From the NCBI GenBank assembly GCA_038243585.1, contig JBBSQY010000010.1:1-64000 (forward strand): DNA of 64,000 nt, read 5' to 3'. This DNA is from Candidatus Sumerlaeales bacterium. Lineage in GTDB: Bacteria > Sumerlaeota > Sumerlaeia > Sumerlaeales > Sumerlaeaceae. How positions within the stretch are numbered: position 1 is the stretch's first letter; every line of letters begins with the position of its first letter. This document shows positions 2,662-64,000 of this stretch, piece by piece. The notes under the pieces are model-generated. The model did no database searches. It saw nothing but the letters and a program-made list of their open reading frames with translations, and had not been told where the DNA came from. A program made the translations under genes and the position numbers.

Positions 2662-3312
2662 GTGAAAACGATTAACAACAAAGCACCGATGATACCCGGC
2701 GGTTTGCTTATCGCTTTTGAGGGGATCGACGGCAGCGGGAAAACGACCATGTCCCGCCGGACTGCGATTGCATTGAGACAGGCTGGGTATAACGCAGTCA
2801 ATTTGCGCGAACCCACCGACGGCCCGCATGGCCGACGGCTGCGGGAAATAATGCTGTCCCCTGAAACGCGCGACCCCAAACTGGAGTTTGAACTGTTTCT
2901 GCTTGATCGGCAAGACGATGTGCGGGAAAATATACAACCTGTTCTGGATGTCGGCGGAATCGTTTGTATCGACCGCTATTATATTTCGTCCATGGCTTAC
3001 CAAGGGGCACTCGGGCTTGACCCACAGATTATCCGAGCGGAAAATGAAAAATTTGCTCCGGCTCCTCATCTTATCCTATTGTACAAATTATGCGTAGATA
3101 CTGCACTAAAAAGAATTGGCAGTTCCAGACCTGACGGGGCCAACGAGTTTGAAAAGCACGATTACCTTAAAATGGTAGATCGTGAGTTTGCGCGAATGGA
3201 TTTTTCGCAGATGATCGAGGTAGATGCCATGCAGAATCAGGATGCCGTGTTTAGCCAAACATGGGAAATTGTGAACGCCAATTTAAGCAGTCATCATGCC
3301 AACAACAAATAA
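2662..3312 (+). CDS. tmk: thymidylate kinase
   Basis: FEGIDGSGKTT P-loop, REPT and DRYYISSMAYQG motifs. Confidence 0.93.
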   Translation: MKTINNKAPMIPGGLLIAFEGIDGSGKTTMSRRTAIALRQAGYNAVNLREPTDGPHGRRLREIMLSPETRDPKLEFELFLLDRQDDVRENIQPVLDVGGIVCIDRYYISSMAYQGALGLDPQIIRAENEKFAPAPHLILLYKLCVDTALKRIGSSRPDGANEFEKHDYLKMVDREFARMDFSQMIEVDAMQNQDAVFSQTWEIVNANLSSHHANNK

Positions 3313-3413
3313 TTTTCATCTAGTGTACGTTTTCTCTTGCTTAGGTATTGTGGAATTCGGCAACCGGTACTTTTAATTATTGAAGTGAAACAAGAGGTTA
3401 GGAGCTCTCACAC

Positions 3414-3824
3414 ATGAAAAAACTTATCACCGTCAGCCTGCTGGCTGCACTATGCGTACCCTTTTCCGGGTGCGACACAACAACGGCAAATGCACCGGGC
3501 AACACAACACTAGGCGGCGCTGCTCTTGGCGGCCTTGCCGGTGCTGGCATCGGCGCAGCCACTAATGGTGGAACTGGCGCTGTAGTCGGCGGCCTTCTCG
3601 GCGCAGGCGCTGGTGGCCTTGTTGGCAACCAGATGGAGCGCAACCGTAATGCGGCCGCTTACAACCAGCAGTATGCTGCCCCGGCACCAGCTCAATATGG
3701 CGCCCCAGCACCAGCTTATCAGTCAGCCCCATCATATTCGGCACCTGCATCTACGGGTGGCTCTTCTGCCGGATATGGCGCACCAGCTCCAGGCTTTGGC
3801 GCTCCGCCGCCAACCAGCTACTAA
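3414..3824 (+). CDS. glycine-zipper lipoprotein with Pro/Ala/Tyr-rich tail
   Basis: Signal peptide with lipobox FSGC; GGAALGGLAGAGIG...GAGAGGLVG zipper; AGGAG RBS; followed by a terminator. Confidence 0.8.
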   Translation: MKKLITVSLLAALCVPFSGCDTTTANAPGNTTLGGAALGGLAGAGIGAATNGGTGAVVGGLLGAGAGGLVGNQMERNRNAAAYNQQYAAPAPAQYGAPAPAYQSAPSYSAPASTGGSSAGYGAPAPGFGAPPPTSY

Positions 3825-12198: not shown

Positions 12199-13665
12199 TC
12201 ACAATTTGGTGGTATCACCACTCCCGGCAGCAGCGAGCGCCGCGTTATAAATCTCCATTACCGGCACCCTGCGCTCTTTTGACAACAAACGACAATCTTC
12301 GTACTCTGGCGAACTCCGTAATACCTTATCTCCCCAAAGCCCCAGCTTCACCTTCACCGGACCAAAACCTGTCTCTACGCTTACTACCCGGCGCTTCAGG
12401 CTTAGGCGCTCGCAAGGCAAAAGTTTTATTCCGAACGTCGTTGTTTCCCGAAATATGATTTCCAGCAAATCATCAATTCGTTGCTGGTCAGCAAGCACCT
12501 GCAGACTGACGGCTGGACGATTTTTTTTCATCTGAACCGGGACAAAGTGGCAATCCAGCGCGCCGGCCGTGATCAGCGACTCCATGGCGGCACCCAAAAG
12601 TTCCGCGGGCATATCATCAATTTCGGCGGTAATAAGTGTTAGATTCTCTCTTAAGACCGGCAGGTTCGCTCCCGCGACACCAGCGTCGGCGGACCGAGTC
12701 TTTCCCAGCAGGATTCTCAGATAATTGGTATGGTCCGGATACTCGCGAGTCCCAGCTCCGTAGGCCACTTTGTCGATCATAAAATTTTCCAGGGGACCAA
12801 AACCCTCCGCAATAGAAGTGAGAATTGCGGCACCAGTAGGCGTTGTTAACTCGCCGGTCACCGGACCGGTACATATCGGAACGCCTGCCAGCAGTCGGGC
12901 CGTTGCAGGTGCGGGAATAGGCATTTCTCCATGAGCTACGCGAATCGTTCCGCTGCCAACCGCAATGGTAGACGCAAGCACCCTAGTGATCCCCAGGCGT
13001 TCGAGGCACCACATGGCGCCAACGATGTCCACTATTGCGTCCACTGCTCCCACTTCATGAAAATGTACGGCCTCAATGGTCGTCTCATGTACGGCAGCTT
13101 CTTCCACGGCAATTCGTTTAAATGCCGCAACAGCCTGCTGCTTGACCGTCTCTGAAAAGTTGCTTTCTTCAATAATTTTTTTGATGTCGGAATAGCCGCG
13201 ATGCGAATGGCTGTGCTCTGCTTGGGCCGGATGATCATGATCATGGACGTCATGCACATGATCATGATGATGACGGTCATCATGACTGTGGCCATGCTTT
13301 AATTCGACAACTGCGGCGGGCTCGTGTATATGCAGGGTTTCCTGATTGTGATCGTGAGAATGTCCATGGTCGTGGGAGTGACTGTGCGAATGCTCATGGT
13401 GGTGATCATGAGAATGTCCATGGTCGTGCGAATGGTCATGATTGTGCGAATGGCTATGGCCAATCAACTTAACCTGCACCTGCGTGCCGCCAATTCCGCA
13501 TCGTTGCACATGGGTGCAGCTAATCTCATAGCCGTCAATCGGCAAGCCTGTTAGCGCCGATTTTAATTCCTCAAAAGGAACTCCAGCATCGACCATTGCT
13601 CCAAGTATCATATCACCGCTAATGCCGCTGAAACAGTCAAAATACGCTACCGTCATTCTTTTCAC
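12199..13665 (-). CDS. larC: nickel pincer cofactor biosynthesis protein LarC (Ni insertase) with His-rich insert
   Basis: YFDCFSGISGDMILGA, HFHEVGAVDAIVDI, PAPAT, ELTTPTGAA, MKKNRP, ETTTFG and PEYEDC motifs. Confidence 0.93.
   Translation of the reverse strand: MKRMTVAYFDCFSGISGDMILGAMVDAGVPFEELKSALTGLPIDGYEISCTHVQRCGIGGTQVQVKLIGHSHSHNHDHSHDHGHSHDHHHEHSHSHSHDHGHSHDHNQETLHIHEPAAVVELKHGHSHDDRHHHDHVHDVHDHDHPAQAEHSHSHRGYSDIKKIIEESNFSETVKQQAVAAFKRIAVEEAAVHETTIEAVHFHEVGAVDAIVDIVGAMWCLERLGITRVLASTIAVGSGTIRVAHGEMPIPAPATARLLAGVPICTGPVTGELTTPTGAAILTSIAEGFGPLENFMIDKVAYGAGTREYPDHTNYLRILLGKTRSADAGVAGANLPVLRENLTLITAEIDDMPAELLGAAMESLITAGALDCHFVPVQMKKNRPAVSLQVLADQQRIDDLLEIIFRETTTFGIKLLPCERLSLKRRVVSVETGFGPVKVKLGLWGDKVLRSSPEYEDCRLLSKERRVPVMEIYNAALAAAGSGDTTKL
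13355..13428. repeat. 54-bp-period internal duplication within the larC His tract
   Basis: TGAGAATGTCCATGGTCGTG exact at 13355-13374 and 13409-13428. Confidence 0.8.
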
Positions 13666-13755
13666 GTCCTATTGTTTCTGGTGACTAAAACCTAAAATTT
13701 TAACTCAACCGGCCTACATTGTCCAGTGCATCGCTTCTGTTCATCAACGCTTTAT

Positions 13756-14526
13756 TTACTCGCGCGTCTGCCCCACCTTATTTATCATATGAGCCAGTAA
13801 CGCGCCGCCAAATCCGTTATCAATATTTACGACACCAATACCACCGCTGCACGCATTCAACATCCCCAGCAGCGCCGCCATACCCTTCATGCTGGCACCA
13901 TATCCAACGCTCGTCGGCACCGCTACCACTGGAGCTCTCACCATCCCTCCAACCACACTGGTTAGCGCAGCCTCCATCCCGGCGATGGTAATTACCACCG
14001 AGGCGCGGCCCAATACATCAGCGACCGAAAGAAGCCGGTGCAAGCCCGCCACGCCTACATCGTACAGCCGATCCACCGAGTCACCCCATATCTCCAGGCA
14101 TCGGGCGGCCTCCTCAGCCACAGGGATGTCAGTAGTGCCGGCGGTTACGACGGCAACCCTGCCAAATCCCGGGCTCGGCGCTTCGTTTACCTTGTATAGC
14201 AAACGTGCTACTGGATCGTAGGAAAAGCCCGGTAAGCCACCCAATATACCGTCAGCCACTTGCTGCACAACCCGGGTACAAATGACGTTTTGCCTACAGC
14301 CGTCAAGGCGCAGCGCAATCTCAACAATCTGCTCAGGAGTTTTACCTTGGCAAAACACTGCCTCGCTCACTCCCCTGCGGCGCCTTCGATCTGTATCCAG
14401 CTTTGTGTGGCCAAGATCAATATATCCGAAGGGCTTTTCACCTGCCACCAGTTCCACGGCATCGACAGGAGACAACTCCCCAGCTGCGACCGATTGCAGC
14501 AGCATCTTTAAACTTTCTTTATCCAT
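13756..14526 (-). CDS. larB: nickel pincer cofactor biosynthesis protein LarB
   Basis: D.DRRRRRG.SEAVFCQGKT, AGTTDIPVAEEA, DVGVAGLHR, PTSVGYGA and VVNIDNGFG motifs; upstream of larC. Confidence 0.93.
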   Translation of the reverse strand: MDKESLKMLLQSVAAGELSPVDAVELVAGEKPFGYIDLGHTKLDTDRRRRRGVSEAVFCQGKTPEQIVEIALRLDGCRQNVICTRVVQQVADGILGGLPGFSYDPVARLLYKVNEAPSPGFGRVAVVTAGTTDIPVAEEAARCLEIWGDSVDRLYDVGVAGLHRLLSVADVLGRASVVITIAGMEAALTSVVGGMVRAPVVAVPTSVGYGASMKGMAALLGMLNACSGGIGVVNIDNGFGGALLAHMINKVGQTRE

Positions 14527-20659: not shown

Positions 20660-20758
20660 TAATGGTTGAGATGGCATTCGCAAAATAAGGACCGACTTTT
20701 CGTCCTCTGAACAGATTCCGAGTTAAACAATACAAAACTATAAGAAATAGCTAACAAA

Positions 20759-20971
20759 GCATCAGCAATTTAAGAGCCCTCAACAAGCTCGCGGAAGCGG
20801 GGTGAAAATCCCCCACGGCACACGCCGCTGTAACCGGTGACGATGTTCGCATAATAAAAATCCACTGGCCCATCAAGGCCGGGAAGGAAGCGAACAAAGG
20901 ACGACCCGGAAGTCAGAAGACGGAACTGCTCGATGCTCCCATATCAAAGGCTTCTCCGTGTGGAGAGAAGC
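20759..20971 (+). promoter_or_regulatory. cobalamin (B12) riboswitch with expression platform
   Basis: GCGGAA-GCGGGGTGAAAATCCCC-CACGG...CGCCGCTGTAA core; GTTCGC/GCGAAC stem; CCACTGGCC..GGCCGGGAAGG; B12 box GGAAGTCAGAAGAC; P1 GCATCAGCA/TGCTCGATGC; downstream hairpin 20950-20971 containing CCGTG, complementary to CACGG (kissing loop), next to the RBS. Confidence 0.9.
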
Positions 20972-20985
20972 GAAGGGTTCAAAAG

Positions 20986-21801
20986 ATGAAACGTAGCATT
21001 TTGCAGACGATTTCTTTAAAGAATTCGTTTGGTCGCGTTGCTATGGCTGCGGCATTCAATATTACAATTTTCGCCGCGGTCGCCCAGACATTTCCGGACT
21101 CCGTGAAGGCTTTCGTACCGGGAGCCAATTCCGGACACGGACAAGCCTTTTATCCGGCGAACGTACTTGGTCCGCCACGCGGCACATCGAATCCCCAGGT
21201 TCCAACCTTTTCCCAAGCTGACCTGCTTTCCCTCGGCACGGGTGGTGCCATTACGCTGGAGTTTTCCAGCAGCCGCATAATTGATAAACCCGGTCCCGAT
21301 TTTACGGTATTTGAAAACCCGGTGCAACCCTCTGGGCACCCGGAGCAGACCTATGCCGACACCGCCATTGTAGCGGTTTCAGATGATGGCATTGCATGGC
21401 ACACCTTCCCTTTTGACATGGTCAGTTCTGCTCCAAACAAGATAGCACTAAAAAGCAATTACGTTGGCTTCGCCGGAGTGCAACCGAGTCTCAGTTCACC
21501 AGAAAACGGCGTTTCACCTTTTGATCCGGCAGTAAGCGGCGGCGACCAGTTCGATCTGGCTGATTTAGGTCTGCCCCACGTTCGTTTTATCCGGATTACC
21601 GATTCGGGCGATGCTCGTCATTTACCCGCTTTTGATTTGCATGGTGACATCGTATATGACTACGGCAACGTTCTTGATCCCGACCCAACAGAACCTGAAA
21701 ATGGAATAGCCGCAGGGTTTGATCTTGATGCCGTCGCCGGGATAAACACAGAGCCGTGGTCGCCTAACTCCGGGGTCCCGCACTGGTTTTTGTATGACTA
21801 G
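20986..21801 (+). CDS. secreted/cell-surface protein under cobalamin riboswitch (putative B12-binding)
   Basis: Signal-like N-terminus ending AVA-Q; LSLGTGGAITLEF...DKPGPDFTVFEN, GGDQFDLADLGL..VRFIRITD and GFDLDAV motifs; C-terminus SGVPHWFLYD. Confidence 0.75.
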   Translation: MKRSILQTISLKNSFGRVAMAAAFNITIFAAVAQTFPDSVKAFVPGANSGHGQAFYPANVLGPPRGTSNPQVPTFSQADLLSLGTGGAITLEFSSSRIIDKPGPDFTVFENPVQPSGHPEQTYADTAIVAVSDDGIAWHTFPFDMVSSAPNKIALKSNYVGFAGVQPSLSSPENGVSPFDPAVSGGDQFDLADLGLPHVRFIRITDSGDARHLPAFDLHGDIVYDYGNVLDPDPTEPENGIAAGFDLDAVAGINTEPWSPNSGVPHWFLYD

Positions 21802-22444
21802 GGCGCCCAGTTATATACGCGCTTTTACCCTCATTGAGCTTCTCATTGTTGTCGCAATTATTGCCGTACTCGCCGTGATTGCAGTGCCTAACTTTTTAAT
21901 GGCGCAGCGCCGCGCAAATCAGGCGCGCTGCGCTACGAATCTAAAAGCCATCGCAGTGGCCCTTCAGACCTATAAAGTCGACATGAACAAATATCCACTC
22001 GCCGACGGAATCGCAGGCGAGGAGGAAAGCATGGCTGAGACCTTAATCGGAATGGGCCCAGCAGCCAACGGAAGCTGGGACGGTGTGCCGCGCATCCTGG
22101 TGCGTCTCGGTTACCTTGGATCTTCGACATACCTGTTTTGCCCTGAGTTCCGCAATCGCTTTCGCGGCGATCGGATGCAAAAATTTCGCTATGCTTACAA
22201 CAACAGCGCCGCCGACACCGGTGGAACAACCGGCGGAACCCATGACGTGGATCGCGACTCCGGTGACATTTGGTTCTGTCGATGCCTGTGGGTACCGGTA
22301 AAATATAGCTTCAAACCCGGCAGCAAAGACGTAAGTTTTCCCCACGGAGAGGACCGCACTTTGGAAAACGTTCTCTATTCCGACAGCCGAGTAACTCCCC
22401 GAGACGGACTTGACGACTACGAACAAGCCTATAATTTAAATTAA
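21794..22444 (+). CDS. prepilin-type N-terminal cleavage/methylation domain protein
   Basis: RA-FTLIELLIVVAIIAVLAVIAVPNF; C-terminal PHG..ENVLYSDSRV resembling H-X9-DG; 8-bp overlap with the upstream gene. Confidence 0.88.
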   Translation: MTRAPSYIRAFTLIELLIVVAIIAVLAVIAVPNFLMAQRRANQARCATNLKAIAVALQTYKVDMNKYPLADGIAGEEESMAETLIGMGPAANGSWDGVPRILVRLGYLGSSTYLFCPEFRNRFRGDRMQKFRYAYNNSAADTGGTTGGTHDVDRDSGDIWFCRCLWVPVKYSFKPGSKDVSFPHGEDRTLENVLYSDSRVTPRDGLDDYEQAYNLN

Positions 22445-22572
22445 AATGCGACCGAGACAAATCACTGAACTGGCATAAAACCGTTTACTTTCCAGCCCAT
22501 CATATGAAAACAGATTCAATCACTTAAACAGCAGCCGCTATCCTAATCCCAAACCGAACAAGGATACTAACC

Positions 22573-56116: not shown

Positions 56117-59100
56117 ATGCCCCTAACTATACCTCCTTCCATGAAAGCCCGTTTTCGCCAACGCAGTGATGCTGACAAGTTGGTTAGACAATTTGGCATT
56201 GAGCAGCCACTAAATCAGGAGCTGTTAAGCACGCAACAGCTAGGGCAACAGGCCAGGCTTTTGGCACAAGCCCATAAAATTAGTGATGCTCACCGTCCTG
56301 ACCAGCTTCTACCTCGTCTTTCACAAAATGAAGCGGTGTTATTGCGTACACATAAAATCATTGCATCAGCAGCTGAACAAGGCAGCGAGATATCGACCAT
56401 AGCGGAGTGGTTACTTGACAATTTCCACTTAATTGAAGGACAGATCCGCAAGGCCCGACTCCACTTACCCAAGTCCTATAGTCGCGAGCTACCTCGCCTT
56501 CTCAATGGCACGCATCGCGTTTATGATATAGTTCTAAAACTGATCTCGCACTCTGATGCGCGCCTTGACGCCGAGAACCTGGCATGGTTTATATCCGAAT
56601 ATCAACAGGTGACATCTCTCAAACTAGGCGAATTGTGGGCTATCCCCATTATGCTGCGTCTTGGACTTATTGAAAACCTGCGCCGCATAGCATCCAAGAT
56701 AACTGCACGCCATGTGGAATATGAAAAAGCCGTTTACTGGGCAAATCGCCTGATGGAACAGGCGGAGACTGATCGTATTAAGCTGGTGGTTAAAGTCGCA
56801 GAACTTGCTATGTCAGATGTAACTCTCGAAAGCGCCTTTGTCACGGAATTTACCCGTCGCCTGCAAGGTCAAGCTACAGAGCAAACCTTCACCCTTGCCT
56901 GGCTGGATCAGCAACTGGCTCAAAAGAACACATCAGTCCGCCAGCTGGTCCAACTGGAAAATCACGCACAGGCCGCAGAGCAACTTTCCATCAGCAACTG
57001 TATCGCAAGCTTGCGATCGCTAGATGCCATCGATTGGCGAGATTTCGTCGAAAGCCTAAGTTACGTTGAAAAAACGTTGCGCAACGATCCAGCAGACGTT
57101 TACAAAAATTCCGATTTTAGTACACGAGACACTTATCGCCATGCGATAGAATCTGTCTCACGATATAGTCAATCGACAGAAGTTGAGGTCGCTGAACTTG
57201 CGGTAAAACTAGCCACTGATGCTGCGATTGACGGTATTGAAAGCGCACGTAAAGGTCACGTCGGCTATTACCTGGTGGGACCCGGGCTTAAACAGCTTCA
57301 CCAAGCGGTGAGAGCGCGTCCGGGCTTTCTGTCGAACGCCGGTGATTTATCCCGGAATCATGCTCTTTTTCTTTACCTTTTTTCGGTTATTGCCTTGGCC
57401 ACTATCGTAACTTTTTTTATCCTTACTTCACCTCTGGGCAATGTCTCTACATGGCTGGCTACTTTGCTCGGCATTGCTACTCTTTTTCTGACAATACAAA
57501 TAGCCTTAGATATTGTCAATCGCGCTGCAATGCATATTGTTAAACCACGCCGTCTTCCCCGAATGAATTTTGAACATGAGATTCCTTCGGAGTTTACGAC
57601 GCTTGTTACCGTGCCGACATTGCTTACCAACACGCAATCCGTGGAGGAACTGCTGGAGGGATTGGAGGTTAGATTCCTTGCTAACCGACAGGAAAATATT
57701 TACTTCAGCTTACTTACAGACTTTCCGGATGCTCCTCAAGGTCAAATGCCCGGTGACGCAGAACTGCTTGCACAGACAGTCACTGGTATAGAGTCGTTAA
57801 ACGAAAAATATGGCTCAACAAACCACGAATCACCGTTTTATCTTTTTCACCGCCCGCGGCTTTGGAATAATCAGGAAAACGTGTGGATGGGCCGCGAACG
57901 AAAACGCGGAAAACTTTCAGATCTAAACGCATTGCTGCGCGGCGAACGAAACGGCGCATTTGCTAAGACAGTGGGTGACATACAAGTCTTGCAGGCCGTG
58001 AAATTTGTCATAACCCTTGATACTGATACTTTACTTCCTCGTGACAGCGCCAGGGAACTTATAGGGACTTTGGCCCACATACTCAATCTGCCGGAAATTA
58101 ATGAGTCAACCGGTTGCGTACGGCACGGTTACGGCATTCTACAGCCCCGCATTAGCACAGACCTCCCTTCCAGATCGAAAACGATTTTCCACAACCTATA
58201 TGGTGGCCAGCCGGGAATTGATCCATACACTCAGACAGTCTCTGATGTGTACCAGGATCTTTTTTATGAAGGCTCTTTTATTGGTAAAGGCATCTATGAT
58301 GTCGACGCGTTTCAGATTGCGTTGGAAAATCGTCTCCCTGATAATCGGATTCTAAGTCATGACCTTATTGAAGGATGTTACGCACGCTCAGGACTGCTCA
58401 GCGATGTCCAACTTTACGAGTCATATCCACTGCGGTATGCTACGGACGTCAGTCGCCGACGCCGCTGGATTAGAGGAGACTGGCAGATAAGTCTCTGGGC
58501 TTTTTCCAGTCCTCCAGACAAAGATGGAAACCCGGTTTGTAATCCACTGCACGGTATTTCCAGATGGAAAATTTTTGATAATCTTCGGCGCAGTGTTCAG
58601 CCTGCTGCAATGACGATGCTGTTTTTTCTGGCCTGGCTTACGCCCGTGCCATATATATGGACTGCTACTATAATCGCGTTGTTATCCGCTCCATATATTC
58701 TTACATCAATTATTAACCTACTAAAAAAGCCAGTGGATCTGCCTTTTACCGTTCATGCGTCACGCGGAATTAAAGATCTGCTTCGCCATGTGGGACAGCT
58801 CCTTTTTTCTATAACCATGTTACCTTTCGAAGCGGCTTTTTCACTGGATTCGATTTTCAGATCTCTCGTGCGAATGTTAGTTACGAAGCAACATCTCCTA
58901 GAATGGACCACATCCATTGACGCCGAGCGCAGTGCAAAATCAACTTTGACAGCGTCTCTATACCAAATGTCGGTAGCCCCTGTAATTACGATTGTTATCG
59001 GCATCGTCATTTGGTTATTTAATCCTCACGCTCTACCAGTTGCCGCACCGTTTCTCATTGGATGGTTCTTTTCGCCAGTTGTCGCTTGGTGGGTGAGTCG

Positions 59101-62100
59101 AATATTGCCGGTCAACGTACCGCATTTATCTGCCGCACAAATCCGCTTTCTTGAGATTCGGGCACGAAAGATCTGGCGTTTTTTCGAAACATTCAGCGGG
59201 TCTGATAACAATTGGATTCCAGTTGATAATTACCAGGAATACCCCGTTACAGCCACGGCGCGACGTACGTCTCCCACGAATATTGGAATGGGGCTGGTCG
59301 CAAACATCGCAGCTCATGAGTTCGCCTATATTTCTACAGGAATGTTACTCGAGCGCACCGCCAACACTTTAAATACCATGCAGCGCATGGAGAAGTTTCG
59401 CGGACATTTCTTTAACTGGTACGATACTGTGTCGCTCCAGCCTTTAATGCCGAAATACGTTTCTTCTGTAGACAGCGGAAACCTTGCCGGGCATTTGCTC
59501 GTTTTGCGTCAGGGGCTGCTCGCCCTTCAGGAAAAAGCGGTGTTGTGTCCGCAACTTCGCAATGGGGTTGCTCACACCTTACAGGTCATCGTAGATGTCA
59601 TCAATAGCAGATCATCTGAGACATCAAAACCGATTCCTCCAGAATTGCTGGTTCGGTTAAAATCACTGGAAAATCAGCTGGCAAACCCTTGCGCTGGAAT
59701 TGCTGAAGCAAAACACCTGCTTACGCTCTTATCCGTTGAAGCAGCCTCTCTTTTCCAAACCTTTGGTCAGGGACTGGATAGCGAAACCTCATACTGGCTT
59801 GATGCTTTTCAGCACCAGTGTAATGATCTTGTTGCAGACTTGGAGCGCTCTGCTCCATGGACTGAGCTGGTTAAAGAATTAACGGATGTTATTGAGACTC
59901 AGTACTCCGATGATGTTACAAAGCGTGATCTACGGGATTTTTTAATCAATCTGAACGGTCACATTTCTTTGTCTGGACTTGCAAATTTAAGAAACATCGA
60001 TCTGCAGTTTTTGAAAACCGCCCCGGCACAGGACTCCAACTCAGACTCACCAATCGCTGCATTATTGCAGCAGCTAAATGAAGTCCTGCTAGCGGCCAGC
60101 GACGAAGCGTCTTCAACCATTAAAGAAATAACAACTCTGGCGGATCTTTCCGGACAGCTGGCAAACTTTGAATGGGATTTCCTATACGACAAGTCGAGAA
60201 GTCTTCTTACAATCGGGTACAATGTTGATGAAGTTCGTCGTGATGAAAGCTTTTACGATCTGCTTGCCTCAGAATCCCGGCTCGGTAGTTTTGTCGGTAT
60301 TGCTCAGGGGCATTTCCCGCAAAAGCATTGGTTTTCTCTAGGACGGCAGCTCACAACCTCTGGTGGACAGGCGGCTTTGCTTTCCTGGAGCGGCTCTATG
60401 TTCGAGTACCTTATGCCTAACCTGGTCATGCCCAGCTATGATAGTACTTTGCTGGAGGAAACTTGCAGAGCTGTTGTAGACAGGCAGATAGAATACGGCC
60501 GCCAGCGCGGCGTGCCGTGGGGGATTTCAGAATCCGGATATAACGTTGTCAATACCCAGCTGGACTATCAGTACAAGGCTTTTGGTGTGCCAGGACTTGG
60601 ACTGAAACGCGGCCTATCAAAGGATTTGGTCATTGCCCCTTATGCCTCCATGCTGGCGCTGATGATTGAGCCTGAGAAGGCATGTGAAAATATAGAACGA
60701 ATGGTTCTTCAAGGTGCTGAAGGTGCCTACGGGATGTACGAAGCGATTGACTATACCAGCGCTCGCGTGCCTCGCGGCCAGGCGTTTGCCATGGTGAGGT
60801 CATTTATGTCACATCACCAGGGCATGAGCTTTCTTTCCCTGGCCTATATCCTCCTGAATCGTCCGATGCAGAAGCTATTTGCCATGGATCCCAATTTTCG
60901 TGCGACAGAGCTCCTGCTGCAAGAGCGAATTCCTCAAATTTCCCCGTTTTATCCTCACACAGTAGAGGTGGAAAATATAAGGACCGGCTCGTCTTCTGAA
61001 GAAGATTTAGTCGGCATCTTTAATACGCCAGACACGCAGGTTCCGGTAGTTCAGTTATTGTCCAATGGTCGCTACCACGTTGTTGTTACGGCAGCAGGTG
61101 GTGGATATAGCAGATGGAACGACATGGCTGTTTCGCGATGGAGAGAAGATCCCACTTGCGACAATTGGGGCCAGTTCTGTTATATCCGAGATGTCGAATC
61201 TGGAGAGTTCTGGTCTACGACTCACCACCCCACGCTAAAAACGACCCGCCGATACACAGCAATCTTTTCGCCGGGGCGTGCAGAATTCAGGCGCGTTGAC
61301 AAGGACATCGAAGCCTACACAGAGATCGTAGTATCTTCCGATGACGACTTTGAATTGCGCCGCACAACTATTACCAACCGCTCTCTCACGCTGCGCAATA
61401 TTGAAGTGACAAGCTATTCTGAAATTGTACTTGCACCCCAGGCTTCGGACGAAACCCACCCCGCGTTCAGCAATCTTTTTGTCGAAACAGAAATTGTTCC
61501 GACACACAACGCCATACTCTGCACTCGCCGGAAACGGTCCCCGGAAGAACACCATCCTTGTATGGTGCACATTATGGCAGTTCATTCTGCAAACATAGGT
61601 CCAGCTTCTTACGAAACTGATAGAACTAAGTTTATCGGACGTGGAAATAGCGTTGCAAATCCGGTAGCCATGAAGGTCCCATCCGCACTGTCAGGAAGCG
61701 ATGGCCCCGTGTTGGATCCCATCGTCTCAGTCCGGCGCACTGTTACCCTGGAACCTGGCGAAATCGCCATTGTAGATATTATTACCGGAATTAGTGAATC
61801 TCGCGAGCTTGCGCTGGACTTTCTCGGTCGATATCAGGATCGACATCAGGCAGATCGGACCATCGAACTTTCCTGGACTCACGAGCGCATACTGTTTCGC
61901 CACCTTGCTTTATCCCGGAGCGTTCTACAGATATATCAGCAGCTGGCTAGCGCTGTGATTTTTGTCAGCAAAGCGTATCGGGCGCCAACGGCTACCCTTG
62001 AACTGAACAAGCGAGCGCAGCCAGGTCTGTGGTCGCTAGGCATATCCGGTGATCTACCCATTGTCCTGCTACGTGTGGAGGATATGGCCCACCTGGCTTT

Positions 62101-64000
62101 GGTCCGCGAAACCCTTCACGTTCATGCCTACTGGCATGAAATGGGATTAAAAACCGATCTCGTTATCTTAAACGAAGACCGCTCTGGATATAGACAGTTA
62201 CTCCACGATGAGTTACTAGGGCTGATAGCTATAAGTGGTGAGCTGATTGACCGCCCCAGCGGGATTTTTCTGCGCCATAGCGATCAGATGACTGAGGATG
62301 ATCGAGTACTGCTGCAAGTCGCATCGCGGGTAATCCTTAGTGGCAACGATGGCTCGCTGGCCAATCATGCGGAACGGCGTCGTGCTAAGAATCCTGTCAT
62401 TCCCAAACTGGAAAGATCGTTTAGGGCACGCCAGGATGATCCACCACCCATGCAGCCGCCTTTCCGCGAGCTTTCCTTCTATAACGGATTTGGTGGGTTT
62501 ACTCCCGATGGACGCGAATACGTCATTACAACTGACAGAAGAATCCGTACTCCAGCGCCTTGGGTTAACGTAATTGCAAACCCATACTTTGGTACCGTTG
62601 TTACAGAAAGCGGAGGTGGATACACCTGGCGGGAAAATGCCCATGAGTATCGTTTAACCCCATGGTCAAATGATCCCGTCAGTGACTCAACAGGTGAAGC
62701 TATCTACATTCGTGACGAAGAGACTGGATCGCTGTGGTCACCAACACCATTGCCGGCTCGCAGCACAAACTCTTATGTCACACGCCATGGGTTTGGCTAC
62801 ACGGTATTTGAGCATGAGTACCAGGGTATCATTACAGAGCTTTGGATTTATGTCGCAATGGATGCTGGAGTAAAATTCTCAGCGCTTAAGATACGCAACG
62901 CCTCTGGTAGACCCCGTCGGCTGTCTACGACTGCCTACGTAGAATGGGTGCTTGGAGAACTGCGTCGAAAGACCATGATGCACGTCAAAACCGAAGTGGA
63001 CTTACAGACCGGTGCGCTATTCGCCACCAACCCGTATAACTCAGAAATGGGAGATCGCGTAGCGTTTCTGGATGTAAACGTCCGCGAGCGTACCGTCACT
63101 GGCGACCGAACCGAATTCCTCGGCCGAAACGGAACAATGAGAAAGCCGGCAGCGCTTTCTCGTGTGCGGCTATCGAACAGGACCGGTCTTGCAATGGATC
63201 CTTGTGGCACCATTCAGGTGAAGTTGGATCTCGCAGACGGAGAAACTCGTGATATCGTTTTTCTTTTAGGGGCGGGGCGCGACAGGGATGACGCACGGGC
63301 ACTGGTGGAGCGATTCAACAAATTTGAACAGCCGCTCCAGGTCCTGGATAGCGTCTGGCAATACTGGAATAATACATTGGGCGGCATTAACATCGTAACA
63401 CCCGACAAATCCGTCGACCTCCTCGCCAATGGCTGGCTTCTATACCAATCCATTTCTTCGCGGATGTGGGGCCGAAGCGGCTTCTACCAATCCGGCGGAG
63501 CTTTTGGATACCGCGATCAGTTGCAGGATGCTATGGCACTTATCCATGTGCAGCCGGTCCAGTTGCGCGACCATCTTTTGCTGAGCGCAGGCCGTCAATT
63601 CCTTGAAGGCGATGTTCAGCACTGGTGGCACCCCCCTGCTGGACGAGGGGTTCGCACCCATTGCTCAGACGACCTCTTGTGGCTGCCTCTGGCCGTGTGC
63701 AGGTATGTAGATGCCATTGGAGATACTGGCATACTGGACGAACAGATAGAGTATCTGCAAGCGCCGCTTTTGGATCAGAACCAAGAAGCTCATTATGACC
63801 TTCCGGCACAATCTGGCCAGTCAGGCTCTCTATATGACCATTGTGTAAGGGCCCTCGAAAAAGGTCTGACTTCCGGCGCTCATGGTCTGCCGCTGATTGG
63901 TGGATGCGACTGGAACGACGGCATGAACCTGGTAGGTGCAGAAGGTAAGGGAGAGAGCGTGTGGCTGGCATTCTTCCTATACGACATCCTTCATAAATTC
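56117..64000 (+). CDS. ndvB: cyclic beta-1,2-glucan synthase (GT84 + cyclization + GH94 domains), runs off window
   Basis: One reading frame from ATG 56117 (or 56141) to the window end, with no stopped ORF of this frame in the track; RERKRGKL, TLDTDT, GKGIYDV, LSHDLIEG, RWIRGDWQ, TSPTNIG, YDLLASESRL, SWSGSMFEYLMP, GAFGYRDQLQD and DWNDGMN motifs. Confidence 0.92.
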   Translation, partial: MPLTIPPSMKARFRQRSDADKLVRQFGIEQPLNQELLSTQQLGQQARLLAQAHKISDAHRPDQLLPRLSQNEAVLLRTHKIIASAAEQGSEISTIAEWLLDNFHLIEGQIRKARLHLPKSYSRELPRLLNGTHRVYDIVLKLISHSDARLDAENLAWFISEYQQVTSLKLGELWAIPIMLRLGLIENLRRIASKITARHVEYEKAVYWANRLMEQAETDRIKLVVKVAELAMSDVTLESAFVTEFTRRLQGQATEQTFTLAWLDQQLAQKNTSVRQLVQLENHAQAAEQLSISNCIASLRSLDAIDWRDFVESLSYVEKTLRNDPADVYKNSDFSTRDTYRHAIESVSRYSQSTEVEVAELAVKLATDAAIDGIESARKGHVGYYLVGPGLKQLHQAVRARPGFLSNAGDLSRNHALFLYLFSVIALATIVTFFILTSPLGNVSTWLATLLGIATLFLTIQIALDIVNRAAMHIVKPRRLPRMNFEHEIPSEFTTLVTVPTLLTNTQSVEELLEGLEVRFLANRQENIYFSLLTDFPDAPQGQMPGDAELLAQTVTGIESLNEKYGSTNHESPFYLFHRPRLWNNQENVWMGRERKRGKLSDLNALLRGERNGAFAKTVGDIQVLQAVKFVITLDTDTLLPRDSARELIGTLAHILNLPEINESTGCVRHGYGILQPRISTDLPSRSKTIFHNLYGGQPGIDPYTQTVSDVYQDLFYEGSFIGKGIYDVDAFQIALENRLPDNRILSHDLIEGCYARSGLLSDVQLYESYPLRYATDVSRRRRWIRGDWQISLWAFSSPPDKDGNPVCNPLHGISRWKIFDNLRRSVQPAAMTMLFFLAWLTPVPYIWTATIIALLSAPYILTSIINLLKKPVDLPFTVHASRGIKDLLRHVGQLLFSITMLPFEAAFSLDSIFRSLVRMLVTKQHLLEWTTSIDAERSAKSTLTASLYQMSVAPVITIVIGIVIWLFNPHALPVAAPFLIGWFFSPVVAWWVSRILPVNVPHLSAAQIRFLEIRARKIWRFFETFSGSDNNWIPVDNYQEYPVTATARRTSPTNIGMGLVANIAAHEFAYISTGMLLERTANTLNTMQRMEKFRGHFFNWYDTVSLQPLMPKYVSSVDSGNLAGHLLVLRQGLLALQEKAVLCPQLRNGVAHTLQVIVDVINSRSSETSKPIPPELLVRLKSLENQLANPCAGIAEAKHLLTLLSVEAASLFQTFGQGLDSETSYWLDAFQHQCNDLVADLERSAPWTELVKELTDVIETQYSDDVTKRDLRDFLINLNGHISLSGLANLRNIDLQFLKTAPAQDSNSDSPIAALLQQLNEVLLAASDEASSTIKEITTLADLSGQLANFEWDFLYDKSRSLLTIGYNVDEVRRDESFYDLLASESRLGSFVGIAQGHFPQKHWFSLGRQLTTSGGQAALLSWSGSMFEYLMPNLVMPSYDSTLLEETCRAVVDRQIEYGRQRGVPWGISESGYNVVNTQLDYQYKAFGVPGLGLKRGLSKDLVIAPYASMLALMIEPEKACENIERMVLQGAEGAYGMYEAIDYTSARVPRGQAFAMVRSFMSHHQGMSFLSLAYILLNRPMQKLFAMDPNFRATELLLQERIPQISPFYPHTVEVENIRTGSSSEEDLVGIFNTPDTQVPVVQLLSNGRYHVVVTAAGGGYSRWNDMAVSRWREDPTCDNWGQFCYIRDVESGEFWSTTHHPTLKTTRRYTAIFSPGRAEFRRVDKDIEAYTEIVVSSDDDFELRRTTITNRSLTLRNIEVTSYSEIVLAPQASDETHPAFSNLFVETEIVPTHNAILCTRRKRSPEEHHPCMVHIMAVHSANIGPASYETDRTKFIGRGNSVANPVAMKVPSALSGSDGPVLDPIVSVRRTVTLEPGEIAIVDIITGISESRELALDFLGRYQDRHQADRTIELSWTHERILFRHLALSRSVLQIYQQLASAVIFVSKAYRAPTATLELNKRAQPGLWSLGISGDLPIVLLRVEDMAHLALVRETLHVHAYWHEMGLKTDLVILNEDRSGYRQLLHDELLGLIAISGELIDRPSGIFLRHSDQMTEDDRVLLQVASRVILSGNDGSLANHAERRRAKNPVIPKLERSFRARQDDPPPMQPPFRELSFYNGFGGFTPDGREYVITTDRRIRTPAPWVNVIANPYFGTVVTESGGGYTWRENAHEYRLTPWSNDPVSDSTGEAIYIRDEETGSLWSPTPLPARSTNSYVTRHGFGYTVFEHEYQGIITELWIYVAMDAGVKFSALKIRNASGRPRRLSTTAYVEWVLGELRRKTMMHVKTEVDLQTGALFATNPYNSEMGDRVAFLDVNVRERTVTGDRTEFLGRNGTMRKPAALSRVRLSNRTGLAMDPCGTIQVKLDLADGETRDIVFLLGAGRDRDDARALVERFNKFEQPLQVLDSVWQYWNNTLGGINIVTPDKSVDLLANGWLLYQSISSRMWGRSGFYQSGGAFGYRDQLQDAMALIHVQPVQLRDHLLLSAGRQFLEGDVQHWWHPPAGRGVRTHCSDDLLWLPLAVCRYVDAIGDTGILDEQIEYLQAPLLDQNQEAHYDLPAQSGQSGSLYDHCVRALEKGLTSGAHGLPLIGGCDWNDGMNLVGAEGKGESVWLAFFLYDILHKF

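Follow-up and report, generated by a model that had tools for sequence, protein, structure and literature searches.

A candidate vitamin B12 capture locus in Sumerlaeota pairs a BtuH-like protein with a pilin-like protein behind a cobalamin riboswitch

The window analysed here is a stretch of 64,000 nucleotides (nt) of contig JBBSQY010000010.1, positions 1 to 64,000 of the forward strand, from the Candidatus Sumerlaeales bacterium assembly GCA_038243585.1. It carries a cobalamin riboswitch followed by two overlapping open reading frames (ORFs) on the plus strand: ORF1 (20986-21801), which encodes a secreted protein with a predicted BtuH-like fold, and ORF2 (21794-22444), which encodes a prepilin-type protein. 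A first-pass annotation of the window, made from its letters alone, had proposed that this pair captures vitamin B12 without the outer-membrane receptor BtuB. We followed up that proposal in the window, in the source genome (3.43 Mb in 99 contigs, 89.7% complete), in a sample of 75 Sumerlaeota genomes that includes the source genome, and in relatives of ORF1 from other phyla. The constant member of the B12 regulon of this phylum is ORF2, not ORF1.

The riboswitch and the gene pair

We scored the leader of ORF1 with the Rfam covariance model RF00174 (Cobalamin), for which the gathering score is 31.5. The Rfam scan gave a match at 20793-20921 on the plus strand of 81.1 bits (E 2.1e-18), covering model positions 47-167 of 189, and a covariance search of the whole genome returned an equal score at the same site. 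This is the sole Rfam match in the window, and it bears out the riboswitch that had been called by eye. The outer helix P1 lies outside the Rfam match; the minimum-energy fold pairs approximately 20758-20767 with approximately 20927-20936, and the aptamer drawn from the Rfam core plus this flanking helix extends over 20758-20936. The leader as a whole folds at -77.5 kcal/mol (z -2.64 against 200 shuffles).

Downstream of the aptamer core we recognize a candidate anti-Shine-Dalgarno sequence, CUCCC (20936-20940), an expression-platform hairpin (20950-20971) and, directly 3' of the hairpin, the ribosome-binding site GAAGGG (20972-20977), which ends 8 nt before the ORF1 ATG at 20986. In both the minimum-energy and the centroid folds the CCC at 20938-20940 pairs with the GGG of the ribosome-binding site, and no terminator-like site was found on the plus strand between the aptamer and the ATG; the leader therefore fits translational control. 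The leaders of relatives place CCUCC opposite GGAGG in the same anti-Shine-Dalgarno and Shine-Dalgarno roles.

The first-pass annotation had also described a kissing loop, between CACGG at 20814-20818 and the hairpin beside the ribosome-binding site. The complementarity to that hairpin stands, although it lies 5 nt from where it had been drawn, as 20814-20818 is helix and junction. In the Rfam alignment structure, P5 (GG/CC) closes a loop of 6, L5, with the sequence CACACG (20819-20824), and the loop of the platform hairpin, CGUGUG (20957-20962), is its exact 6-nt complement, which makes L5 the candidate donor. Ten leaders from the taxonomic family of the source genome all keep the CACG core of L5 (10/10); their platform loop is CGUG in six and CGNUG in four. 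No compensatory change in the L5/hairpin-loop pair was seen in these ten leaders, so a loop-loop contact is plausible and, at most, consistent with the data. The riboswitch itself is ordinary.

The two genes that follow overlap by 8 nt. ORF1 begins with a signal-like segment and ORF2 matches the N_methyl family, in agreement with the earlier description of an overlapping pair made up of a secreted protein of 271 amino acids (aa) and a prepilin-type protein.

ORF2, a pilin-like protein and the constant member of the regulon

ORF2 encodes 216 aa and scores above the cut-offs of both prepilin models: 27.7 bits with N_methyl PF07963 (cut-off 21.2) and 27.8 with TIGR02532 (cut-off 16.3). Its match to DUF1559/SBP_bac_10 (PF07596), at 21.0 bits, is below the cut-off of 23.3 and covers residues 43-78 only, and its matches to GspG are weak and below threshold. 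Some of its orthologues bear a precomputed PF07596 label, and language-model look-alikes that score 0.91-0.95 include clusters labelled PF07596. The structural model of ORF2 (predicted local distance difference test, pLDDT, 94.1) has a long N-terminal helix at residues 13-64. Compared with 48,161 representatives in the PDB, it is most like pilins and pseudopilins, with Z 6.1 for a type IVb pilin, 5.8 for EpsG and 5.6 for PilA4; the DNA-binding pilin ComP scores 4.7. There was no match at Z 8 among these representatives, and Foldseek returned none from the PDB at E <= 0.001.

Orthologues of ORF2 are numerous, at 42-85% identity, and the named ones are from Sumerlaeota. In 43 aligned orthologues the prepilin residues F11, T12, L13, E15 (Glu5) and L16 are invariant (43/43), as are Y60, D63, D71, W95, R132, Y133, Y135, N136, W160 and R163 in the head. 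The source genome contains 47 prepilin-motif frames, and ORF2 resembles about 31 of these paralogues. Most of these matches end at residue 68-72, and at most at 110, so the rest of the ORF2 head is unique within the genome. A complex prediction for ORF1 (residues 33-271) with ORF2 (residues 35-216) scored 0.00 in both runs, and we used it neither for nor against binding.

The distribution of the pair was assessed across the 75 Sumerlaeota genomes. Cobalamin riboswitches occur in 71 of them, with 107 matches altogether. A single-copy ORF2 orthologue (E <= 1e-30) is present in 68/75 genomes and in 42 of the 43 that are of high quality; the ORF1 family is found in 30/75. In 52 of the 68 genomes with an ORF2 orthologue, a riboswitch precedes that gene at a distance of up to 5 kb, sharing its contig and strand, and these 52 riboswitches represent nearly half of the 107 in the phylum. 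Twelve of them are within 450 nt, so that ORF2 is the first gene in those genomes; another 12 are at 450-1200 nt, a spacing that fits the presence of ORF1 between riboswitch and ORF2; and 28 are further off.

We examined 19 more ORF2 loci, most from genomes without an ORF1-family match, by submitting 53 ORFs to Pfam. Here ORF2 typically follows two secreted proteins that show propeller signatures of the PQQ_2-like and BNR_4-like kinds. One locus (L089) has a BtuF-like gene 3' of the ORF2 orthologue, and another (L090) has a BtuF-like gene plus an ABC ATPase. In two further loci (L007 and L008) the operon reads riboswitch, a protein of about 376 aa, ORF1 relative, ORF2 relative.

TonB-dependent barrels are rare in the same sample. 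They are present in 12/75 genomes, with one match each, and none was seen in the other 63, which include two one-contig genomes. One of these, G066, belongs to the same taxonomic family as the source genome, is 96% complete, and contains a riboswitch-ORF1-ORF2 locus. The contigs with the 12 barrel matches contain no riboswitch. The recurrence that the first-pass annotation had suggested looking for, in lineages without btuB, is thus present for ORF2 with ORF1 or with other secreted proteins (52/68 ORF2 loci; no barrel in 63/75 genomes).

ORF1 and the BtuH domain

ORF1 has no lipobox, and no cysteine occurs within its first 40 residues. More than 800 relatives of similar length exist, some of them labelled "cell surface protein" by their sources; those with an organism label are from Sumerlaeaceae, Myxococcota, Chloroherpetonaceae or an unclassified "bacterium". 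The Myxococcota relatives have a lipobox cysteine ("TACG"), and several relatives have a type IX secretion tail. In a 35-member alignment L83, G84, G87, D105, F109, E110, N111, G185, G186, D187 and D190 are invariant, which bears out the motifs singled out in the first-pass annotation (SLG.GG.I...DF.VFEN...GGD.FD).

We modelled ORF1 with AlphaFold2 on this alignment (mean pLDDT 90.7) and obtained a beta-sandwich. The top two Foldseek matches were PDB entries 8BLW chain B, which is BtuG1 of Bacteroides thetaiotaomicron, and 7BIZ. In a second structural alignment, to Foldseek's best 1000 chains, 8blw_B scored Z 12.6 (root-mean-square deviation 3.1 A over 164 residues, chain 392-660) and 7biz_A scored Z 12.5 (3.4 A over 157 residues, chain 316-592); the third match, a generic CBM32/discoidin-type domain, scored Z 9.4. 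The matched chain ranges are exactly the B12-binding domains of BtuG1 and BtuH2, so the resemblance to surface proteins of Bacteroidota B12 loci proposed in the first-pass annotation is recovered by the structure search. According to PMC8941943, 7BIZ is B12-bound BtuH2, the vitamin is held by the C-terminal globular domain, and the contacting residues are His476, Tyr510, Trp511 and Trp577; PMC10404256 describes the C-terminal extension of BtuG1, about 250 residues, as homologous to BtuH2.

In sequence comparisons the resemblance to Btu proteins is faint. Searched against PDB sequences, a profile of the 35 members recovered no Btu protein, only two capsid hits at chance level (E 0.096 and 0.14). 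A broader one, built from 28 members that span more phyla, had a single PDB hit at E <= 10, namely residues 431-497 of the BtuG1 H-domain (E 0.038, 16.6 bits), and this hit aligns the SLG-GG and DF-x-x-x-N motifs of the ORF1 family. In NCBIfam, ORF1 matched the LIC_13355 lipoprotein model alone, with 43.4 bits, under the cut-off of 120.

We also considered whether ORF1 might be a BtuJ protein. BtuJ1 and BtuJ2 are presented in PMC13398666 as B12 binders of the DUF4465 family, and as described there they are like ORF1 in being secreted beta-sandwich proteins, linked to riboswitches and transport genes, in several phyla. Unlike them, ORF1 and the 34 relatives aligned with it have no DUF4465 or other informative Pfam match at E 10, and there is no BtuJ among the listed structural matches; we therefore rejected this assignment.

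The genomic context of the ORF1 family was surveyed in one genome per species, for a total of 79 loci, counting riboswitches within a 3-kb flank that were upstream and on the same strand. A cobalamin-class riboswitch precedes the ORF1-type gene in 55/79 loci from many phyla (by batch 16/20; 16/20, one with an adenosylcobalamin model; 13/20, plus one riboswitch that is downstream only; and 10/19). This proportion is a minimum, since in several of the misses (L019, L022, L031 and L040) the flank is taken up by a receptor gene. Lineages represented behind riboswitches include Sumerlaeota, Myxococcota, Fermentibacteria-type lineages, KSB1, Kapaibacteria and Binatia, among others, so the homologue survey proposed in the first-pass annotation came out in favour of the association. 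In other phyla, the neighbours of ORF1 relatives (Pfam, 84 ORFs from L004-L043) are often TonB-dependent receptors, and also BtuF-type proteins, FecCD permeases, ABC ATPases, and DUF5074, YncE and NHL propellers.

Longer relatives are informative with respect to domain partners. There are 228 at E <= 0.001, and domains were counted in 120 listed. Among these 120, 47 are built like BtuG1, with a DUF5074 and/or YncE propeller, and 24 like BtuH2, with Ig/PKD domains. None of the 120 listed carries N_methyl or DUF1559, so this family yields no fusion evidence for a physical link between ORF1 and a pilin. Because fold, genomic context and domain partners agree, we place ORF1 with the BtuH type of B12 binder; on the evidence of the model it is a stand-alone protein distantly related to the BtuH domain, as a member of that group or a cousin, and a candidate B12 binder.

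Several unusual arrangements were seen among the relatives. A 952-aa frame in a high G+C genome of Polyangiaceae (L013:2760-5615) contains an ORF1-like domain (match 3001-3606), a Plug and a TonB-dependent barrel, and looks from its sequence like a BtuH-like domain fused to a receptor. A Fermentibacteria locus (L038, 2461-2878) carries a back-to-back pair of cobalamin riboswitches, one per strand (121.5 and 96.4 bits), and in Corallococcus (L015, 1150-4245) there is one riboswitch on each side of the ORF1 relative.

B12-related and pilus-related genes in the source genome

As the first-pass annotation had reported, the genes next to the locus do not include btuB, btuFCD, cob/cbi or metE. On the upstream side are glycosyltransferases and a Kdo transferase, and on the downstream side is a GH78 rhamnosidase. 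The rhamnosidase gene starts 128 nt 3' of ORF2, and because no terminator-like site was found between them (22445-22572, plus strand), read-through of the riboswitch-controlled transcript into it is possible. Among the relatives examined, a rhamnosidase N-terminal domain is found 3' of the ORF1-ORF2 pair in one locus only (L004), with a 575-aa ORF in between.

We asked what the rest of the genome encodes for B12 uptake. There were no matches to the TonB-dependent barrel (PF00593), none to the Plug (PF07715) at E 0.1, and no tblastn hits with three receptors taken from loci of ORF1 relatives. CbiC was likewise without a match in the genome. Three frames contain a B12-binding domain, one of which, at 1238 aa, is MetH-like by size. 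The genome encodes one strong match to the FecCD permease family (BtuC-like), situated between UvrA-like and DegT-like genes, and one BtuF-type protein, with the best ABC ATPase match (BtuD-like) about 4 kb away. The first-pass annotation had named a canonical btuB-btuFCD system elsewhere, if it fully accounted for uptake, among the findings that would speak against it: the btuB part was not found in the genome, and BtuF-, BtuC- and BtuD-like genes are present, away from the locus. Because these importer genes are encoded elsewhere, only the outer-membrane step is left without a known component.

Omp85 has two matches in the genome, secretin domains occur in three ORFs, and T2SSE-family ATPases account for 18 matches, about 12 of them of PilT size. 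For a genome of 3.4 Mb the inventory of pilus type, with its 47 prepilin-motif frames, 3 secretin ORFs and 18 T2SSE matches, is large. Taken as a whole, the genome points to a likely B12 auxotroph: it has an outer membrane, which B12 would cross by no known route, together with an importer in the inner membrane and plentiful machinery of pilus type.

A second cobalamin riboswitch, full length and scoring 87 bits, is present on another contig (C33:6593-6784, in the region C33:5334-6784, locus L003). It precedes a single gene for a 366-aa secreted protein that is 33-34% identical to the product, of about 376 aa, of the first gene in the L007 and L008 operons. Because those operons have three genes, and the 366-aa protein is homologous to the first of them, one ancestral module appears to have been split between the two riboswitches of the genome. 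Language-model look-alikes of the 366-aa protein are NHL/SGL propellers (0.87-0.90), which we treat as a lead only, and tblastn with the PQQ_2-like and BNR_4-like propeller proteins from other families of the phylum gave no hits in the genome. A heme oxygenase gene lies immediately 5' of this second riboswitch.

A C-terminal tag on secreted proteins

ORF1 ends in W-F-L-Y-D (21784-21798), and the Sumerlaeota relatives of ORF1 end in W-x-L-Y-D/E. We searched the genome for W-x-[LMIVTC]-[YFW]-[DEQ] directly before the stop codon in ORFs of at least 100 aa, and found it in 21, as compared with none at each of ten internal control offsets. Both secreted proteins encoded behind the riboswitches, ORF1 and the 366-aa protein, are in this set, of which 15 members begin with a signal-like segment as judged by a crude test for hydrophobic stretches. 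In a looser form, W-x-x-[YLW]-x, the motif is at the C-terminus of 21 of 33 proteins encoded by the first or second gene of a Sumerlaeota B12 operon. The tag has no transmembrane part, and it occupies the role position in which Myxococcota relatives have a lipobox and those of other phyla a type IX secretion tail. We regard W-x-L-Y-D/E as a candidate phylum-specific C-terminal sorting or anchoring tag. A systematic pairing of tagged genes with pilin-like genes was also considered; comparison by eye gave one clear adjacency (contig C59), which was too little, and the idea was dropped.

A proposed mechanism and its alternatives

The reading we favour, and hold to be fairly probable, is that the locus is a B12-repressed module for corrinoid capture or uptake that works without BtuB, in which ORF1 is a BtuH-type surface binder and ORF2 is a dedicated pilin-like carrier or acceptor. 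Its observed basis consists of the riboswitch, the predicted folds, a genomic linkage that is conserved and a genome in which BtuB was not found; from these we infer corrinoid binding, surface location, fibre assembly and ligand hand-over. All the computational checks proposed in the first-pass annotation were carried out, and none of them went against it. When B12 is scarce, the ribosome-binding site would be free, and ORF1 and ORF2 would be co-translated by way of their overlap. ORF1 would be exported by its ordinary signal peptide, placed at the surface by its C-terminal tag, and would bind corrinoid through the BtuH-like domain. ORF2, once trimmed by the prepilin peptidase, would be assembled into a short fibre akin to those of type IV pili or type II secretion, the parts for which (secretins, assembly ATPases, PilT-size ATPases) would be supplied from elsewhere in the genome. 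It might receive corrinoid directly, or from ORF1 and the propeller-like protein of the second riboswitch, and would move it through a secretin to the periplasm, for import by the BtuF-like and BtuC-like proteins and the ABC ATPase. When B12 is plentiful, the ligand-bound aptamer would dock on the platform hairpin and the ribosome-binding site would be closed.

A number of observations weigh against this proposal. The sequence link between ORF1 and BtuH is weak (E 0.038), and ORF1 has no Pfam match. No solved B12 binder was matched by the ORF2 head, which comes closest to ordinary pilins at Z 6.1 or less, and there is no gene for pilus or secretion machinery beside the locus. Residue -1 of the ORF2 FTLIE cleavage motif is Ala, where Gly is usual before a prepilin cleavage motif, and relatives have Gly or Ala. 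Sixteen of the 68 ORF2 orthologues are without a riboswitch on their contig, and five of these start less than 2 kb from the low-numbered contig end. The BtuF-like and BtuC-like genes of the source genome are not behind a riboswitch. Finally, that genome is 89.7% complete and has two TonB_C matches, so a divergent or unassembled receptor is possible.

A more specific version, which we advance tentatively and by analogy, is that B12 in Sumerlaeota crosses the outer membrane by means of a dedicated pilin: the head would bind corrinoid and a retractable fibre would pull it through a secretin, in place of a TonB-dependent receptor. The image of retraction through a secretin is drawn from DNA uptake by competence pili.

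It is also conceivable, though unlikely, that ORF2 makes no fibre and is instead a periplasmic B12 trap anchored in the inner membrane, or a docking protein for BtuF or BtuCD, with B12 entering by some other outer-membrane route. The Pfam name of the related DUF1559, SBP_bac_10, would suit such a role, as would the BtuF-like and ABC ATPase genes after ORF2 in L089 and L090, the absence of assembly genes next to ORF2, and the Ala in place of Gly at -1. A trap, however, would leave unexplained how a molecule of about 1.3 kDa passes an outer membrane in which no TonB-dependent receptor was detected. Nor is a prepilin signal that is invariant in 43/43 orthologues, Glu5 included, required of a plain anchor, and the genome is rich in pilus ATPases and secretins.

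Less probable still is that ORF2 has no contact with B12 and serves as an export pseudopilin, helping a machine of the type II secretion kind to bring B12 binders to the surface. Type II secretion pseudopilins push cargo through secretins, ORF2 has weak GspG matches, and it always occurs with secreted proteins that bear the C-terminal tag. Were export its function, one would have to explain why the cargo varies by family (BtuH-like in some, PQQ_2-like or BNR_4-like propellers in others) while the head of ORF2 is conserved, and why in 12 genomes ORF2 lies directly behind its own riboswitch. The tag is common to 21 proteins, of which just two are known to lie behind a B12 riboswitch, and so it gives no obvious reason for an exporter subunit dedicated to B12.

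We give little credence to a conventional BtuB that is unassembled or too divergent to recognize, with ORF1 and ORF2 as accessories to a TonB-dependent system. Such a receptor would be in keeping with the incompleteness of the source genome, its two ORFs with a TonB_C domain, the TonB-dependent receptors adjoining ORF1 relatives in other phyla and the single barrel matches in 12 Sumerlaeota genomes, but 63 of the 75 genomes show no barrel, among them the one-contig G066 with the same riboswitch-ORF1-ORF2 locus. The 12 barrels that do occur are never on the contig of a riboswitch, and neither the Plug search at E 0.1 nor tblastn gave a hit.

Scarcely credible is a carbohydrate role, in which ORF1 is a CBM32-type module acting with the rhamnosidase and the riboswitch is incidental or serves some other B12-dependent adjustment of the surface: the discoidin/CBM32-type sandwich (many matches at Z 8-9) and the nearby GH78 gene with no predicted terminator before it would fit, but the BtuH2 and BtuG1 matches stand 3 Z units above those to CBM32, the riboswitch link holds in 55/79 loci from many phyla with B12 transport genes alongside, and the rhamnosidase neighbour recurs in L004 only.

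Relation to known systems

BtuH2 and the H-domain of BtuG1 in Bacteroides thetaiotaomicron (PDB 7BIZ and 8BLW) are B12-binding surface lipoproteins encoded in riboswitch-controlled btu loci. They give ORF1 its best fold match and, faintly (E 0.038), its sole profile hit in the PDB; ORF1 shares with them a place behind a cobalamin riboswitch and, in its wider family, propeller or Ig/PKD partner domains. It differs in being a stand-alone protein of 271 aa, without a lipobox, a PKD or propeller domain or a Pfam family, and in its W-x-L-Y-D end; its genome, moreover, has no detected BtuB or BtuG to receive the vitamin. As in the BtuB-BtuFCD system of E. coli and BtuBG of Bacteroides, a cobalamin riboswitch would act on a ribosome-binding site, and the genome also encodes an inner-membrane import set made up of a BtuF-like protein, a permease of the FecCD type and an ABC ATPase. 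Unlike in those systems, no TonB-dependent receptor was detected, and the genes behind the riboswitch encode a putative soluble surface binder and a pilin-like protein.

ORF2 is similar to type IV pilins and type II pseudopilins in its class III signal peptide with Glu5, its long N-terminal helix and its pilin fold. It departs from known pilins in having a head with no close solved relative (best Z 6.1), in its predicted regulation by a B12 riboswitch, and in its distance from assembly genes. ComP, the DNA-binding competence pilin of Neisseria, sets a precedent, as its head binds a substrate for uptake; we know of no pilin that carries a vitamin.

The DUF1559 (SBP_bac_10) proteins are pilin-like and are greatly expanded in Planctomycetota, Verrucomicrobiota and Armatimonadota. 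ORF2 resembles them in its weak Pfam match, in its look-alikes at 0.91-0.95 and in the large paralogous family to which it belongs (47 prepilin-type frames), and is set apart by a score under the curated cut-off and by a head that is specific to its own orthologue group. In 41 Planctomycetota genomes with 30 riboswitch loci, a true DUF1559 gene is the first after the riboswitch at one locus (1/30; L130:1501-2707, genome G079). This gene scores 57.2 bits with SBP_bac_10 and 32.5 bits with N_methyl and starts 135 nt after the riboswitch; its head is unrelated to that of ORF2, the similarity being confined to residues 9-61. Pfam searches of 11 other first genes from these loci identified two TonB-dependent receptors, three BtuF-type proteins and three propellers.

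Two aspects of the locus appear to be new. One is the central place of a pilin-like protein in a B12 regulon, where a riboswitch-linked scavenging locus has a pilin instead of BtuB. The other is the apparent presence of BtuH-type genes behind riboswitches well outside the groups named in PMC8941943, where the BtuH domain is placed in gut Bacteroidetes and three Firmicutes. In the library searched we found no paper that ties pilins or DUF1559 to B12, and none on B12 uptake in Sumerlaeota. In a comparative study of the phylum, PMC8092238, a term search found B12, cobalamin and TonB to be absent and the motility of type IV pili to be named once.

The significance of the proposal derives from the barrier that the outer membrane presents. 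B12 is too large for ordinary porins and, to our knowledge, uptake in all well-studied bacteria that have an outer membrane goes by way of the TonB-dependent receptor BtuB. Sumerlaeota is a phylum with an outer membrane and mostly without such receptors that keeps B12 riboswitches in 71 of 75 genomes, and the most conserved gene behind them is pilin-like. If ORF2 binds or carries B12, this would be a second outer-membrane route for the vitamin and would give the first ligand-defined handle on hundreds of pilin-like paralogues in this and neighbouring phyla, and BtuH-type binders would be extended far past gut Bacteroidota. Should import on a pilin prove true, it would be the first case of a small-molecule nutrient on a pilin, and the DUF1559-like expansions would gain a first function, with each paralogue a candidate substrate-specific uptake subunit.

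Other features of the window

About 6.5 kb upstream of the locus, on the minus strand, are a LarB-like gene (AIR carboxylase family) and a LarC-like gene (nickel insertion) at 12202-14526. LarB-like and LarC-like genes are also found directly 3' of the ORF1-ORF2 pair in two relatives (L006:2671-4668 and L106:1915-3929). At the far end of the window an open frame of at least 2628 aa (56117-64000, plus strand) continues past the window end.

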